DNA of 64,000 nucleotides from a virus (lineage: Duplodnaviria; Caudoviricetes), in IMG/VR virus record IMGVR_UViG_3300021387_000087; one strand, 5' to 3'. Below are positions 33,787 to 53,487 of the stretch, one piece after another. The position numbers and the translations under genes are program-made. Below the pieces are notes generated by a model. The model saw nothing but the letters and a program-made list of their open reading frames with translations, was not told where the DNA came from and searched no databases. How positions within the stretch are numbered: position 1 is the first letter of the stretch; every line of letters starts with the position of its first letter.

Positions 33787-34404
33787 TTATACCTCTTCAT
33801 TAATAATATTCATCTGACAAGACTTCATTGTCATCAATGCTACTCTATGAAGTTCTGGGGTGGTACCTGCGCAACACGATGCATCAATAGTGATTTCTGC
33901 TTCGGGGAATGCCTGACGAAGTGCAAAAGCATTAGAGACTACACAAATATCAGTGCAAACGCCTATCAGCTCAAATTCAAGGTCTTCTCCTTTATAATCC
34001 AAAGGAACATACATATCCAAAAATGAATTCAAAAGATCAACCACTGTTCTCCAAACATTACCCTCAATTGCGAAATTTCCTTTAACAATAGTATTGTATC
34101 CTTCTTTTCCTTTAATCCACGGATGTCGTCCAGTCGCATGAACAGTATCTAGAATATCTTTCACAATATCCAACCCTCTATTACTTTGACAATGCGGAAC
34201 TGGTAAATAACGTCCTTCTCTTGTTTGCGGATAATCATCTTCATCATGCATATCCATCGTAAAAATTAAACGGTCATAATCTTTAACCTTAATCTTCTCA
34301 ACGACCTTTGGTACAATTGCCTGTGCTTCTGGAGTACCAAGAACGCCACTGATGAAATCATTTTGCATATCAATTACCATTAGAATTTTCTTTCTTTTGT
34401 TCAC
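33787..34404 (-). CDS. Isochorismatase-family cysteine hydrolase, nicotinamidase (PncA)-like
   Basis: IDMQNDF, DMH, PHC, GVCTDICV; overlaps the end of cas12f. Confidence 0.82.
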   Translation of the reverse strand: MNKRKKILMVIDMQNDFISGVLGTPEAQAIVPKVVEKIKVKDYDRLIFTMDMHDEDDYPQTREGRYLPVPHCQSNRGLDIVKDILDTVHATGRHPWIKGKEGYNTIVKGNFAIEGNVWRTVVDLLNSFLDMYVPLDYKGEDLEFELIGVCTDICVVSNAFALRQAFPEAEITIDASCCAGTTPELHRVALMTMKSCQMNIINEEV

Positions 34405-35767
34405 TTTTCTTTTTACTCCCTTCGTCTTCTTTAATAAAATTTTGTGACATCGCTATATTTCTAGCAGCATTAAAATCTGCATTAATATATTTTTGATTGC
34501 TATAAATTTTATGACAGATACACTCTGGATTGGTACAAATAAACTCTTTTTGCGTTTTCCGAAGTCCCCTTTCACCACAGACAGAACATGTCTGGGACGT
34601 GTATTTTGGATTAATCTTTCTCACTTCAATCCCGTGTATAGCAGCCTTATACTTAATCTTTTCTTGTAAATCATAATAAGACCAATTCCGCAGAATCATT
34701 TTTGAATGTTCATCATCTTTTACATGACCATATTTATCACGACCAAAGCCCGACAAATCTTCTATATTAATATATTTTGCTCCATTCTTGACTGCAAAAT
34801 CTACTACTCTGCGACTAACCATATGAGAATATGTTTGGACAAAATTTTTCTCCCGCTTTTTCAAACGATCTAATGCACGAAGTTTTTTCTGTCTACCATG
34901 ACCGCCTTTACTATCTTTCAATGCATGCTGTAAACGTCTTCTTTCATTCTGTATCTGAGTTCTAATTCGTAAGAACTCATCTGCGCTTCCAATAGCCAAA
35001 CGTTTATAGTAGTCATTATTTAATGCGCACATTGCAGGAACCGCTTGCCCCAAGTCTACGCCTAATACGACATCTTCATTCAAAGCAGTTTCAACTTTTG
35101 GCACTTCTAATGTAAGATTGATAATAATCTTTGTTCCTTTGATTTCTATTGTGCTACCACCAACTTTATATTCTTCTGTAAAAATTCGTTTAAAAACTTC
35201 CCGCTGTTCTTTACTACGATAAGGATTCCCAAATCGAAACTTAAAAGTAATATTGTTACAAAACTTAATAAGAACTTCTGGCTTCATATCATTTTCCAAA
35301 GCTTCAAAAAGTTTTGCTGGAGTTTCATAATTATGATAGATACCATTATCATCTTTTTTAGTGCCACGAAGTGCAACAAAATTTACATGTACAATTAAAG
35401 GATTGTTGCTTCTGTAAGTTGGTAATGAGATACGCCCATACATCAAACCCTTTTTACAAGCATTATCAAAATCTTGCTTAACTTTTCTACTTGCAGAAGC
35501 TGCAATTGGTAGACCCACAGGAAATTTTATATCTTTTGTATATCCACTGCCCTTTTTACTATTGGTAACTCTCTGAAACAAATTATTTAATTCTTTTCTA
35601 TCTTCCAATGACATTTCATAAGACTTTGCCATAAATAAATGAGATATATATTCATTCATAGCTTTATTTTGTGCTTCAATGCCCTGTTTTAACCATGTAT
35701 ATACTCTATTAATTTCTTCTTTATCTCCAACTACTTGAAGTTCATATTTTCTTGTTAAATTTGGCAT
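34370..35767 (-). CDS. cas12f: Cas12f-family (type V-F, C2c10-like) RNA-guided nuclease, 465 aa
   Basis: RuvC-I GVDLG, RuvC-II IEDLS, CSVC zinc finger, RuvC-III NADFNAARNIA; GRISLPTYR, GGHGRQKKL and LRNWSYYDLQ segments recall Cn/AsCas12f1; 36 bp from a CRISPR array. Confidence 0.88.
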   Translation of the reverse strand: MPNLTRKYELQVVGDKEEINRVYTWLKQGIEAQNKAMNEYISHLFMAKSYEMSLEDRKELNNLFQRVTNSKKGSGYTKDIKFPVGLPIAASASRKVKQDFDNACKKGLMYGRISLPTYRSNNPLIVHVNFVALRGTKKDDNGIYHNYETPAKLFEALENDMKPEVLIKFCNNITFKFRFGNPYRSKEQREVFKRIFTEEYKVGGSTIEIKGTKIIINLTLEVPKVETALNEDVVLGVDLGQAVPAMCALNNDYYKRLAIGSADEFLRIRTQIQNERRRLQHALKDSKGGHGRQKKLRALDRLKKREKNFVQTYSHMVSRRVVDFAVKNGAKYINIEDLSGFGRDKYGHVKDDEHSKMILRNWSYYDLQEKIKYKAAIHGIEVRKINPKYTSQTCSVCGERGLRKTQKEFICTNPECICHKIYSNQKYINADFNAARNIAMSQNFIKEDEGSKKKSEQKKENSNGN

Positions 35768-35803: not shown

Positions 35804-36163
35804 ACTTCAATTCATACCATATATAAATTAAATCAATTTGATCCGGGATGATTCCATTGTAGACTATGCTTCAATTCACACCTATGTACAAATTGAATCC
35901 TTTTACATAATAAAAGGGACAGCCCACAACCACGCTTCAATTCATATTTGTATACAAATTAAGTCATCGTCCAACCATAACGCGAATCATGGTCAATCTG
36001 CTTCAATTCACGTCTACGTACAAATTGAATCCTGCCTGATCCACCATCAGAGCATACTTTTCCCATACTTCAATTCATACCTGCCTACAAATTGAATCAT
36101 AGAGAACAAATTTGCCTGACAAGGATGGTAAGCTTCAATTCATACCTACGCACAAATTGAATC
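35804..36163 (-). CRISPR. CRISPR array: 6 repeats (31-32 bp), 5 spacers (33, 34, 34, 35, 33 bp)
   Basis: Repeats at 35804-35834, 35868-35899, 35934-35965, 36000-36031, 36067-36098, 36132-36163; plus-strand consensus RCTTCAATTCAYRYYTRYVYACAAATTGAATC; the most degenerate copy is next to cas12f, which suggests minus orientation. Confidence 0.92.
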
Positions 36164-36345
36164 GGCAAATATCAACTATAACCCCTTATATATACGACTT
36201 TTTTTATTCAATTTGTATGTATGATGATTTATTGAGTGGATCAACTCCCTCAACTTTCGGACGTGAAGCCGCCCGTAATACTTTAATAGTATTAATTTAT
36301 GGTGCGAACATACTTAATATTCTCTGTTCACTTTATGTTCGCACT
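36164..36345 (-). ncRNA. Leader/tracrRNA-like region with anti-repeat and hairpin
   Basis: Inverted partial repeat ATTCAATTTGTATGTATGATGATTTATTGAGT starting at 36206; 11-bp hairpin GTGCGAACATA/TATGTTCGCAC at 36302-36344. Confidence 0.65.
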
Positions 36346-37985: not shown

Positions 37986-39341
37986 TTAACTCCATTTAAT
38001 TTTAACATTATTTTTCTTGCATGCTTCCAACACTTTAGACCATTCATACTTTTTAAAAGTAGTAAGTACTCTAATAACGCCAGCATTATCACCCCAAGCA
38101 CCCTTTCCAATTTCTTTTGCAAGAACATCAAGACTAACTTTCTTTCTGCGATTAACTTCATCAACGGCACCCTGACCCATTTGTCGATAATCTCCAAGCG
38201 CTTTAGCACGAGCGTCACCAGACCCAAAATATCCATTGATAATCGCGGCTGCAAAAGCATATTTCAAAGCCGTCTTATCTTTATTTAAAATATTAACTCG
38301 GTTCTGAATCGCTTTAGCATTATTGGCACCAAACAAAGCGGTAAGAGTATTACTGCGCTGAGGGTCTTTACCATAAGCACCAGCAAACACCTTGCATGCG
38401 TATGCCGTAGTTTGGATCAAATTAAGCTGCTTATTAATAGCCTTATACTTAATCCACTTAATCTTAGTAAGACTCTTTTCTGCATAAATAGAAGCATAAC
38501 CTTCATCATAAATATCACATGTAATATTTCCATACAAATAATTTCCAAGCACTCGGCAACCAGCTGTATTAAATCTATTAATAACCATTGTGCGCCCAGA
38601 ACTTTTATAACTGCTATGATAATCCAACAGACCATACTTAGCGCCCATAGCTTTACAAAACGCTAAACTGCTTGCATCCTGATCTCCATGCCACTGTACA
38701 TGTACAAAATCAGGCTTTAGCGGATTCTTTCCATATCGTTCAATAAACTGATTATTCGCTTCTTTTGCGTTATCACCACCACCATAATAAGTCCATGTGC
38801 GACCATGAATATCTGTCAGAGTAAACAACGTACCAAGAGATGTATTATTTACATAATGATGCGAATCTACTTCTTTCAGCTTCTTATAATTAGACCTAAA
38901 AATTACATTGCATTTAATATTGCCAACTTTGAAACCATCACCTTCTGTAATATAATGAACATTCTCTTCACCACATTCTGTGATACACTGCTTGCGAATT
39001 TTATCTATATAATTCGCACGACCTTTAAGAGAAGAGTGATACAAAAATGGCTCTTTAGATGGAAGATAAAAAGATTTTACTTTAAACGCCTTTGTATATC
39101 TTGTTGTATCCCCCATATGGTCTTCATGTGGATGTGTAAATACAACAGCATCAACTTCTCCAGATTTAATAATAGATTGATACGCTTTTAGTGCATCACA
39201 ATCCGCACTACCAGTATCAATAATTACACAATGTGCAACATTACCTTTATCATCATATTCAATAATTGCAGTACTACTTCCCGACTCTTCAGAATGATAC
39301 TTAAAAAGTGACGGTTGAAAAATACAAAATCTCTTACTCAT
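37986..39341 (-). CDS. Metallo-beta-lactamase-fold hydrolase (ComEC/Pce-like) with C-terminal CW_7-like repeats
   Basis: IIDTG, THPHEDHMG, NNTS, GGD, WHG; GAYG/GYFG/GAWG repeats. Confidence 0.75.
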   Translation of the reverse strand: MSKRFCIFQPSLFKYHSEESGSSTAIIEYDDKGNVAHCVIIDTGSADCDALKAYQSIIKSGEVDAVVFTHPHEDHMGDTTRYTKAFKVKSFYLPSKEPFLYHSSLKGRANYIDKIRKQCITECGEENVHYITEGDGFKVGNIKCNVIFRSNYKKLKEVDSHHYVNNTSLGTLFTLTDIHGRTWTYYGGGDNAKEANNQFIERYGKNPLKPDFVHVQWHGDQDASSLAFCKAMGAKYGLLDYHSSYKSSGRTMVINRFNTAGCRVLGNYLYGNITCDIYDEGYASIYAEKSLTKIKWIKYKAINKQLNLIQTTAYACKVFAGAYGKDPQRSNTLTALFGANNAKAIQNRVNILNKDKTALKYAFAAAIINGYFGSGDARAKALGDYRQMGQGAVDEVNRRKKVSLDVLAKEIGKGAWGDNAGVIRVLTTFKKYEWSKVLEACKKNNVKIKWS

Positions 39342-53361: not shown

Positions 53362-53487
53362 TTTGTACATTCAAAAAGTCCAATGTTTTCAGTAGGGGGT
53401 ATACAAAATTTGAATATAGGAGAGTATTTACTATATTCATTTTTCGTATACCCCCCCCTGATTTTATTGGGTTTTTTGAAGGTCAAA
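53362..53487. repeat. Long imperfect palindrome
   Basis: GGGGGTATAC..TGAATATAG / CTATATTCA..GTATACCCCC core, extended by TTCAAAAA..CCAAT..TCAG / CTGA..ATTGG..TTTTTGAA. Confidence 0.8.

Follow-up and report, generated by a model that had tools for sequence, protein, structure and literature searches.

The stretch of DNA analyzed here, hereafter the window, comprises 64,000 nucleotides (nt) of a virus (Duplodnaviria; Caudoviricetes) deposited as IMG/VR record IMGVR_UViG_3300021387_000087. It is phage DNA, described as that of a large gut phage, and contains genes for a portal protein, large terminase, endolysin, and exonuclease. The minus strand encodes, in order, a structured leader, a short CRISPR array, and a miniature type V nuclease of the Cas12f type. 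Both leader and repeats bear the format of bacterial type I-C arrays. The best-supported mechanism, which we hold with moderate confidence, is that the array makes use of the Cas4-Cas1-Cas2 proteins of an infected host.

The nuclease gene (34370..35767, minus strand) begins 36 nt beyond the array, which thus lies upstream of it. The 465-residue product is assigned to the Cas12f/TnpB-type RuvC nucleases by matches in Pfam (Cas12f1-like_TNB, 4e-17; OrfB_IS605 also matched), in NCBIfam (guided_TnpB, 9e-47, 160 bits against a cut-off of 100), and among Protein Data Bank chains named Cas12f (3e-65; nearest 9nzo and 9nzr, both labeled 'Cas12f', 8hr5, and 9nzp). The RuvC triad (D238, E336, D431) and a zinc finger of the form CxxC...CxxxxC (C394, C397, C411, C416) are invariant among 24 aligned relatives. 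Several hallmarks of type V-F are therefore present: a TnpB-derived nuclease of 400 to 700 residues; an intact RuvC triad; a zinc finger; and an adjacent array with a predicted RNA resembling a trans-activating CRISPR RNA (tracr-like RNA). The score nevertheless does not reach that of a curated Cas12f family model, being 98 bits against a cut-off of 450 for NCBIfam Cas12f2. Searches with the single protein retrieved one locus from IMG/VR and two from metagenome contigs; a profile search and exact-protein look-ups supplied further relatives. The same nuclease allele is also found on contigs of up to 156 kilobases (kb), and the phage is at least 156 kb long. GenBank holds no phage similar to the 64-kb window.

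The array (35804..36163, minus strand) consists of six repeats, with fixed ends and variable centers, and five spacers. The repeats occupy positions 36163-36132, 36098-36067, 36031-36000, 35965-35934, 35899-35868, and 35834-35804; five are 32 nt long and the last is 31 nt. Four of the six end in ATTGAAGC and two in ATTGAAGT. The spacers measure 33, 35, 34, 34, and 33 nt, and all of these lengths fall within the I-C range (repeats of 31-33 nt in the host arrays described below; spacers of roughly 32-37 nt). At the 3' end, the window repeat (ATGAATTGAAGC) agrees with the I-C repeat (GTGGATTGAAAT/C) at 8 of 12 positions; in a related phage locus, L212, the repeats end in GAATTGAAAC. The rest of the repeat departs from I-C: it starts with GATTCAATTT, has an AT-rich, variable center, and lacks both the 5' GTCGC and the GC-rich internal stem-loop that serves as the Cas5c substrate. 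Each repeat can fold upon itself from end to end, forming a hairpin of 11-12 base pairs (bp) in which the variable center keeps its pairing.

The leader opens with a hairpin, termed the box. A 44-nt string, GTGCGAACATAAAGTGAACAGAGAATATTAAGTATGTTCGCACC, occupies 36344-36301 of the minus strand, and the core box (36302..36344) is formed by the inverted arms GTGCGAAC(ATA) and (TAT)GTTCGCAC. The stem is 11 bp (GTGCGAACATA and TATGTTCGCAC), and the 21-nt loop starts with AAGTGAACA. Its predicted folding energy is -14.1 kcal/mol against a shuffle mean of -3.6 (z = -5.8), and none of 200 shuffled sequences folds as well. Zero matches to the box pattern are expected in the 64-kb window and there is one, which ends 138 nt before repeat 1. 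The 42 nt directly before the array (36164..36205) are AT-rich and end in ATTTGCC (36170-36164), a leader-repeat junction of the I-C type. A sequence-only reading of this DNA had pointed to the minus-strand hairpin before the first repeat, the ATTTGCC leader end, the 32-bp repeats with 33-35-bp spacers, and an I-C-like repeat 3' end; each of these stands, with the qualifications that the last repeat is 31 nt and that most, but not all, of the 3' end is common to I-C. Rfam contains no family that matches the leader or the array.

The sequence-only reading had also stated that such a hairpin belongs to I-C leaders, and this premise proved sound. A scan of one genome per species with the pattern GTGCGAAC, 1-8 nt, AGTGAAC, 5-25 nt, TTCGCAC found the box at a minimum of 120 genome loci, against about 11 expected by our own estimate. 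Among the matches listed, most are from Bacillota (Lachnospiraceae, Oscillospiraceae, Holdemania, Paenibacillus, and Bacillus), with a few metagenome-assembled genomes (MAGs) labeled otherwise. Among the same matches, an array begins 104-140 nt past the box in about 100 of 125 occurrences; judged from their coordinates, most of the remainder run off the end of the sequence fetched. Nearly all listed loci have an element of 42-43 nt, with the consensus GGTGCGAACCnnAAGTGAACATnAAAT..GGGAGnTTCGCACC. Repeats behind the host boxes are canonical for I-C, with the 5' GTCGC, the GC-rich stem, and the GTGGATTGAAAT end; they are 31-33 nt long and recur with a period of 64-69. Locus L036 gives the full order: Csd2, Cas4, Cas1c, Cas2, 9 nt, box, 137 nt, array. 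Its Cas1c scores 492 bits against a curated cut-off of 385. Each I-C cas gene was found in 41-44 of the 122 loci searched (8 kb each), and several genomes carry the box ahead of more than one array; the box thus belongs to the array, not to cas2. The box also appears in MAGs labeled as archaeal, Pseudomonadota, Lentisphaeria, Anaerolineales, and Synergistales (L041 and L049, both with a Methanomassiliicoccus label; L004, L037, L060, and L067), which could reflect either true spread of the I-C module or binning error.

Alignment of 90 host leaders with that of the window reveals a second conserved block at the leader end, TTTTGC(T), with column identities of 0.7-0.9. The junction reads ATTTGCC/G in the window against a host consensus of TTTTGCT/G. 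Distances from box to first repeat in the hosts cluster at 105, 116, 127, and 138 nt, with stragglers at 158; the window distance of 138 nt is one of these modes. A period of 10.5-11 bp describes these distances best (Rayleigh R = 0.63, n = 91). Kinship among the genomes inflates the associated p-values, but the discrete modes are plain regardless. Such phasing points to a role for the box in duplex DNA, on one face of the helix. It fits a preprint (bioRxiv 10.1101/2023.05.26.542337) that, attributing the point to Santiago-Frangos et al. 2021, states that I-E, I-F, and I-C leaders have subtype-specific phased upstream motifs that DNA bending brings to Cas1. In all, the box, its phased distance, and the junction are common to the window and the hosts, the outcome for which the sequence-only reading had proposed the alignment, and as judged by sequence comparison the window leader is confirmed as I-C in type.

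These observations bear on a different role for the hairpin, raised in part by the sequence-only reading itself: that it acts as a terminator or insulator for upstream small open reading frames (ORFs), or drives the tracr-like RNA and array as a promoter or controls them as a regulatory RNA element, and has no part in adaptation. The hairpin is indeed stable, and it begins 9 nt past the stop codon of a small ORF (36634-36353, minus strand) that lies directly upstream; in L123 and L212 the corresponding distance is about 5 nt. By our own reading, moreover, TTCGCA-17 nt-TAAAGT could pass for a weak promoter. However, no U-tract follows the 3' side of the hairpin, and a terminator scan, which takes only loops of 3-8 nt, was negative. 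Arms and loop are kept in many host lineages, mostly Bacillota, even at arrays with no cas gene in the 8-kb stretch; and box and first repeat are set apart by distances phased at about 11 bp, which neither a terminator nor a promoter needs. The hairpin as a mere terminator is therefore not supported (no U-tract, a conserved loop of 21-27 nt, phased distance), mainly by virtue of conservation and phasing given the loop sizes that the scan accepts, and we consider the wider proposal of a non-adaptive element highly improbable.

The sequence-only reading did not foresee a second function of the leader. Seven phage leaders, whose nucleases are 52-94% identical to that of the window, align in a fixed order: I-C box; stem 0; stem 1; stem 2; anti-repeat; AT-rich segment; TTGC junction. 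The box arms are conserved and the TTGC is invariant. RNAalifold predicts 44 pairs for these leaders, 19 with compensatory changes. In the window, stem 0 (TAATACT...AGTATTA; 36276..36294, minus strand, with compensatory pairs) is followed by stem 1 (CGGGCG and CGTCCG; 36258..36275, minus strand), and stem 2 (GTTGAGGGA...TCCACTCAAT; 36231..36254, minus strand) varies by compensatory changes such as GTTGAG/CTCAAT to GTCGAG/CTCGAC. The anti-repeat (CATACATACAAATTGAAT; 36206..36223, minus strand), identified by repeat search and RNAalifold, is complementary to the 5' arm of the repeats. RNAalifold pairs it with the 5' arm of the first repeat, and compensatory changes are included in pairs 154-159/235-240 and 173-179/227-233.

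The other end of the repeat appears to be matched as well. The stem-1 loop, GCTTCA at 36269-36264 (minus strand), is complementary to the last six nucleotides of the repeat, TGAAGC, and across phages it covaries with the last two repeat bases through three states: GCTTCA with TGAAGC in the window and L123; ACTTCA with TGAAGT in L128, L226, and the downstream array of L132; and GTTTCA with TGAAAC in L212. (In L223, GCTTCA accompanies repeats that mostly end in TGAAGT, allowing a G-U pair.) Guide RNAs of Cas12f and TnpB have several stems, a final anti-repeat/repeat stem, and guide-proximal pairing, and the window leader has the same layout. Covariation thus supports the view that the leader doubles as a predicted tracr-like RNA gene.

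A tracr-like RNA that covaries with both repeat ends indicates that the array serves the phage nuclease, not host Cascade, and the transcription direction set by the leader suits that assignment. The converse, that the array feeds the host I-C Cascade and the adjoining nuclease is unrelated to it, draws on the I-C-like leader and repeat 3' handle, and on an array upstream in L132 whose repeat is near-canonical for I-C. That mini-arrays borne by viruses may rely on effectors of the host is an earlier proposal. Against this stand the covariation just described; a repeat with a variable center and without the GC-rich I-C stem-loop that Cas5c needs; and the constant company of array and nuclease gene, which occur together on all seven fetched contigs, representing three nuclease alleles within one 90% protein cluster. 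To service of Cascade we give hardly any credence.

How, then, would such an array gain its spacers? A tblastn search of the 64-kb window with Csd2, Cas4, Cas1c, and Cas2 found none of them (best E-values 0.41 for Csd2 and 0.66 for Cas4), and the fetched phage loci L121-L215 contain no Cas1, Cas2, or Cas4 homologue. Spacer content nonetheless differs completely between close relatives. Behind near-identical leaders within a single cluster of 90% protein identity, the spacers are wholly disjoint among the window with L221 and L222, L223 with L224, L226 with L228, and L128; relatives with 85-88% identity, L123 and L212, again carry entirely different spacers.

The repeats retain further traces. 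In L226 they form a nested series that runs from R5 at the trailer by way of R3 and R4, and next R2, to R1 at the leader. The two repeats nearest the leader in L128 have derived states in common, whereas the distal repeats keep GAGTTGAAAT. Terminal repeats have canonical I-C ends: GTGGATTGAAAT in L123 and GTGAGTTGAAAT in L128. Both patterns are expected if the first repeat is duplicated at each insertion, starting from an I-C repeat. At the leader end of the L123 array (1323-1370), the first repeat has an internal 14-nt duplication, for 46 nt in total, and the spacer after it is short, at 24 nt; a faulty insertion or a replication slip may be recorded here.

Two protospacer families were recognized, both for spacers of sister arrays. 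Spacer 6 of L123 closely matches window positions 53391-53421 (31 of 34 nt), with TTC directly 5' at 53388-53390; the protospacer (53388..53421, plus strand) lies in an intergenic palindrome. This target forms one arm of the long palindrome at 53391-53460 (GGGGGTATAC...GTATACCCCCC), and the other arm, which has ATC as its flank, is a poorer match to the same spacer (27 of 34 nt). A diverged match (28-29 of 35 nt) links spacer 2 of L223, which L224 also carries, to an isochorismatase-family (nicotinamidase-like) gene that adjoins the nuclease gene; in the window, where the gene occupies 33787-34404 (minus strand), the diverged homologue of the protospacer lies within it at 33809..33846 (plus strand; 28 of 35 nt, TTC 5'). 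On its 5' side this site has TTC in both the window and L123, but L226 reads TTA there. The isochorismatase-family gene adjoins the nuclease gene in the window, L123, and L226, and is absent from the L223 and L224 phages; the guide would thus strike rivals while sparing its own genome.

TTC on the leader-proximal side is the protospacer-adjacent motif (PAM) of I-C, and TTC makes up 2.2% of window trinucleotides. Its 5' position is equally the geometry of a 5'-PAM type V nuclease. The sequence-only reading had suggested looking for TTC or TTN flanks, and TTC is seen for the two families of the sister arrays. For the window itself, none of the five spacers has a significant match among INPHARED phages, and IMG/VR contains no exact 24-mers of window spacers 1-3 (nor of the L123 spacer-6 target). 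Weak protospacer matches for window spacers, H28 and H33, were dismissed as partial or repeat-derived.

Taken together, these findings suggest that the I-C-format array of this phage Cas12f-type module is filled by host Cas4-Cas1-Cas2 and yields CRISPR RNAs (crRNAs) that serve the phage nuclease, an account that we think probable rather than certain. In this model, a phage-borne miniature type V module carries an array built like a bacterial I-C array, behind a leader with two jobs. The first, as comparison shows, is to keep the I-C adaptation signals: the box at its phased 138 nt and the TTTGC junction. The second, supported by covariation, is to encode, between those signals, a three-stem tracr-like RNA whose anti-repeat and stem-1 loop pair with the repeat. 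When the phage infects a Bacillota/Clostridia host with I-C, host Cas4-Cas1-Cas2 would recognize the leader and repeat and would insert TTC-flanked fragments at the leader end. The crRNAs would load the phage nuclease instead of host Cascade; a 5' TTC PAM with a crRNA that reads repeat and then spacer suits, in its geometry, a Cas12 nuclease of the 5'-PAM kind. Competing, related phages would be what the guides are turned on.

The proposal that host Cas4-Cas1-Cas2 updates the array originated with the sequence-only reading, and only part of what might be expected of it was found. The TTC flanks, the spacer turnover, the retention of the box across divergent nucleases, and the lack of cas1, cas2, and cas4 from the window all agree with it. 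Leader-end growth was not seen: comparison of leader-end spacers among related phages gave neither leader-polar growth nor partly overlapping arrays.

Several points weigh against the model. Among the arrays compared, no pair has common trailer spacers and a different leader end, and the window array is identical in three contigs from different samples that carry the same nuclease allele. All six window repeats differ in their centers, which fits an old, rarely extended array and suggests that insertion is rare. The lack of the I-C 5' GTCGC and GC-rich stem bears on whether I-C Cas1-Cas2 would accept the repeat. In sister lineages, the loop box AAGTGAACA is replaced by AAGTCATCA or AAGTTATCA. 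Across 123 sequences, 76% of box hairpin cells are paired against 73.9% in shuffles, with core arms that the search pattern itself fixes, and the variable flanking and inner pairs are paired in about half of cells; such modest covariation across hosts is a strong sign neither for nor against RNA structure. The molecular role of the box would follow from its phasing and from analogy with I-E and I-F leaders. The PAM evidence comprises two protospacer families, one present only as diverged homologues, and the nuclease itself could produce this flank if it preferred a T-rich PAM. Finally, the search for adaptation genes covered 64 kb of a phage of 156 kb or more.

Some of these points find a ready home in a fossil capture. 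Here, an ancestor would have recombined with a host I-C array; the box and junction would have been retained through linkage or for use as a structural cassette or promoter; no new spacers would be added, and arrays would differ by whole-cassette exchange between phages. Arrays that are identical within a lineage, wholly different between lineages, and not bridged by intermediates are as such exchange predicts. So too are the heterogeneity of the window repeats, the degraded loop box in some lineages, and the two-repeat mini-arrays of L201 and L202, the former with a 17-nt spacer, not an I-C adaptation length. Other observations resist it: arms, junction, and helical phase are kept across nucleases of 28-94% identity, though the intervening sequence became a tracr-like RNA gene; TTC flanks both protospacer families; the nested series of repeats are what growth by steps from the leader end would leave; and spacer lengths stay I-C-like. 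On balance, we judge fossil capture unlikely, and favor filling by host enzymes.

A separate issue is where the I-C format came from. The repeat could have arisen when the hairpin at the end of the nuclease's own omega or tracr RNA was duplicated, and could later have converged on the length, ends, and leader of I-C, a mimicry that differs from descent from a host array in history only and implies the same present function. Omega-RNA duplication is among the array origins weighed by Altae-Tran et al. 2023. The leader does contain a repeat-like hairpin just before its AT-rich segment, the anti-repeat resembles the 3' arm of the repeat, and the repeats self-fold. Convergence would have to accommodate, however, the oldest repeats in L123 and L128, which are nearer to canonical I-C than the newer ones; the near-canonical repeat of the upstream array in L132; and a combination of 43-nt box and junction that seems too specific to arise easily. 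We regard mimicry as improbable.

The wider distribution of the box extends the comparison beyond close relatives. In 10 phage leaders the distances from box to repeat are 117, 119, 128, 129, 138, 138, 138, 141, 149, and 159 nt, and 9 of the 10 lie within 2 nt of the host series despite the tracr-like RNA between the signals. The box adjoins nucleases only 32-37% identical to that of the window (L201-L204), and at four loci from the genome scan (L003, L007, L037, and L054) a nuclease of 28-31% identity lies directly before box and array. These four are MAG contigs from goat, sheep, and other samples; L007, L037, and L054 have non-canonical repeats (GTTGCAACACGCGC..CTTGAAGG) and a box with a GC-rich loop variant. 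Downstream of the distant nuclease relatives in L201 (3640-3900) and L202 (3540-3800) stand an I-C box, a tracr-like region, a TTTGC(C/A) junction, and then only two repeats, separated in L201 by a spacer of just 17 nt; these mini-arrays look like fixed guide units, not growing arrays. A contig classed as viral, L121 (IMG/VR 3300045988_183103), has an I-C box, an array with GTCGCACCCCGCACGGGGTGC-type repeats, and a homologue of Csd2 (I-C Cas7); the contig may be a fragment of a host or a phage that has I-C effector genes.

In IMG/VR, arrays of other formats also adjoin relatives of the nuclease. Twenty-five arrays have the junction ATTTGAG/GTTT, a documented II-A adaptation signal, with 36-nt repeats and 30-nt spacers. 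Such II-A-type mini-arrays flank the nuclease relatives, often on both sides (L135, L138-L158, L163-L177, and L196-L197), and read in the same direction as the gene, so that a II-A PAM would fall on the side opposite to the one that a 5'-PAM nuclease needs. At still other relatives the repeats are of kinds that we take to resemble I-B and I-E. It is close to an even bet that this phage family of miniature nucleases has docked repeatedly onto whatever host adaptation modules were available (I-C, II-A, and I-B/I-E-like formats), its tracr-like RNA co-evolving with the borrowed repeat ends. If so, many type V arrays that lack adaptation genes began as captured host arrays, not by omega-RNA duplication, and host Cas1-Cas2 would be a common resource, exploited by phages as a means of arming against their rivals.

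Two further observations concern the phage and its potential hosts. A portal-protein search of 399 Clostridia genomes found a related portal gene in one, G174, which has an I-C Cas1c and no nuclease homologue; as a single case this pointer to the host is too thin, and it was not used. The I-C locus of that genome (L218, G174:C2) has a variant leader box, GAGCGAAC..AGTGATAT..GGTTCGCT, and its repeat ends in GTGAGTTGAAAT, as do the oldest repeats of the L128 phage array. Elsewhere in the window, a 451-residue protein of the metallo-β-lactamase (MBL) fold with CW_7 repeats is encoded at 37986-39341 (minus strand); a homologue at the start of L223 has a weak Pfam match to Anti-Pycsar_Apyc1, and the window protein may, from this resemblance, be a counter-defense enzyme that degrades cyclic nucleotides.

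To the question of where Cas12f-type and other type V arrays without adaptation genes obtain their spacers, this locus offers a testable answer for one lineage. It combines defined I-C adaptation signals, TTC-flanked targets, and a tracr-like RNA tuned to a borrowed repeat. The analysis further gives I-C leaders, mostly in Bacillota, a defined upstream box, conserved and phased, that can be mutated in existing I-C integration assays. If the model is true, host adaptation machinery arms phages against their competitors; compact nucleases with arrays filled by a well-characterized integrase may also be of use. Our literature search found no paper on I-C leader signals at a Cas12f-type array, though the box itself may already be in the primary leader-motif literature.

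Medvedeva and colleagues reportedly described virus-borne mini-arrays in 2019. The adaptation-less CRISPR loci that huge phages carry (Al-Shayeb et al. 2020, PMC7162821) resemble the present one in being phage arrays without adaptation genes and with spacers against related phages; here, in addition, the adaptation signals of one host subtype are identified, conserved, and phased. The TnpB/Cas12 survey of Altae-Tran et al. 2023 describes a Cas12f branch without Cas1, Cas2, and Cas4; it does not discuss leaders, and it leaves open whether arrays arose by omega-RNA duplication or by insertion beside an existing array.

As in type V-F, the window has a miniature nuclease with RuvC and zinc finger, an adjacent short array, a multi-stem tracr-like RNA with anti-repeat and guide-proximal pairing, and no cas1, cas2, or cas4. 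Unlike type V-F, its array lies upstream of the gene, its tracr-like RNA lies inside the leader, leader and repeat are in I-C format, and guided_TnpB, a generic model, is the only one in NCBIfam that the protein passes. Native I-C arrays of Bacillota/Clostridia have the same upstream box, phased distance, TTTGC junction, 32-nt repeats, and 33-35-nt spacers; their ATTGAA-type 3' end is matched in part (8 of 12 positions), and their TTC PAM is seen at targets of the sister arrays. The window differs from them in that no I-C cas genes were found there, the repeat lacks GTCGC and the GC-rich stem, and a predicted gene for a structured RNA takes the place of the middle part of the leader.

The closest precedent is the type IV-A3 CRISPR-Cas of plasmids, whose leader and repeats resemble those of I-E (Pinilla-Redondo et al., bioRxiv 10.1101/780106) and to which host I-E Cas1-Cas2 adds spacers in trans (Benz et al., bioRxiv 10.1101/2023.06.23.546257). 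Both are systems of mobile elements without adaptation genes (for the phage, within the window), with leader and repeats resembling those of a type I system, a compatible PAM, and a part in conflict between related elements. The window differs in having a single Cas12f-type nuclease on a phage, an I-C format, and a leader that also encodes the tracr-like RNA; and whereas acquisition in trans by IV-A3 was established by experiment, for the window it is deduced from sequence.

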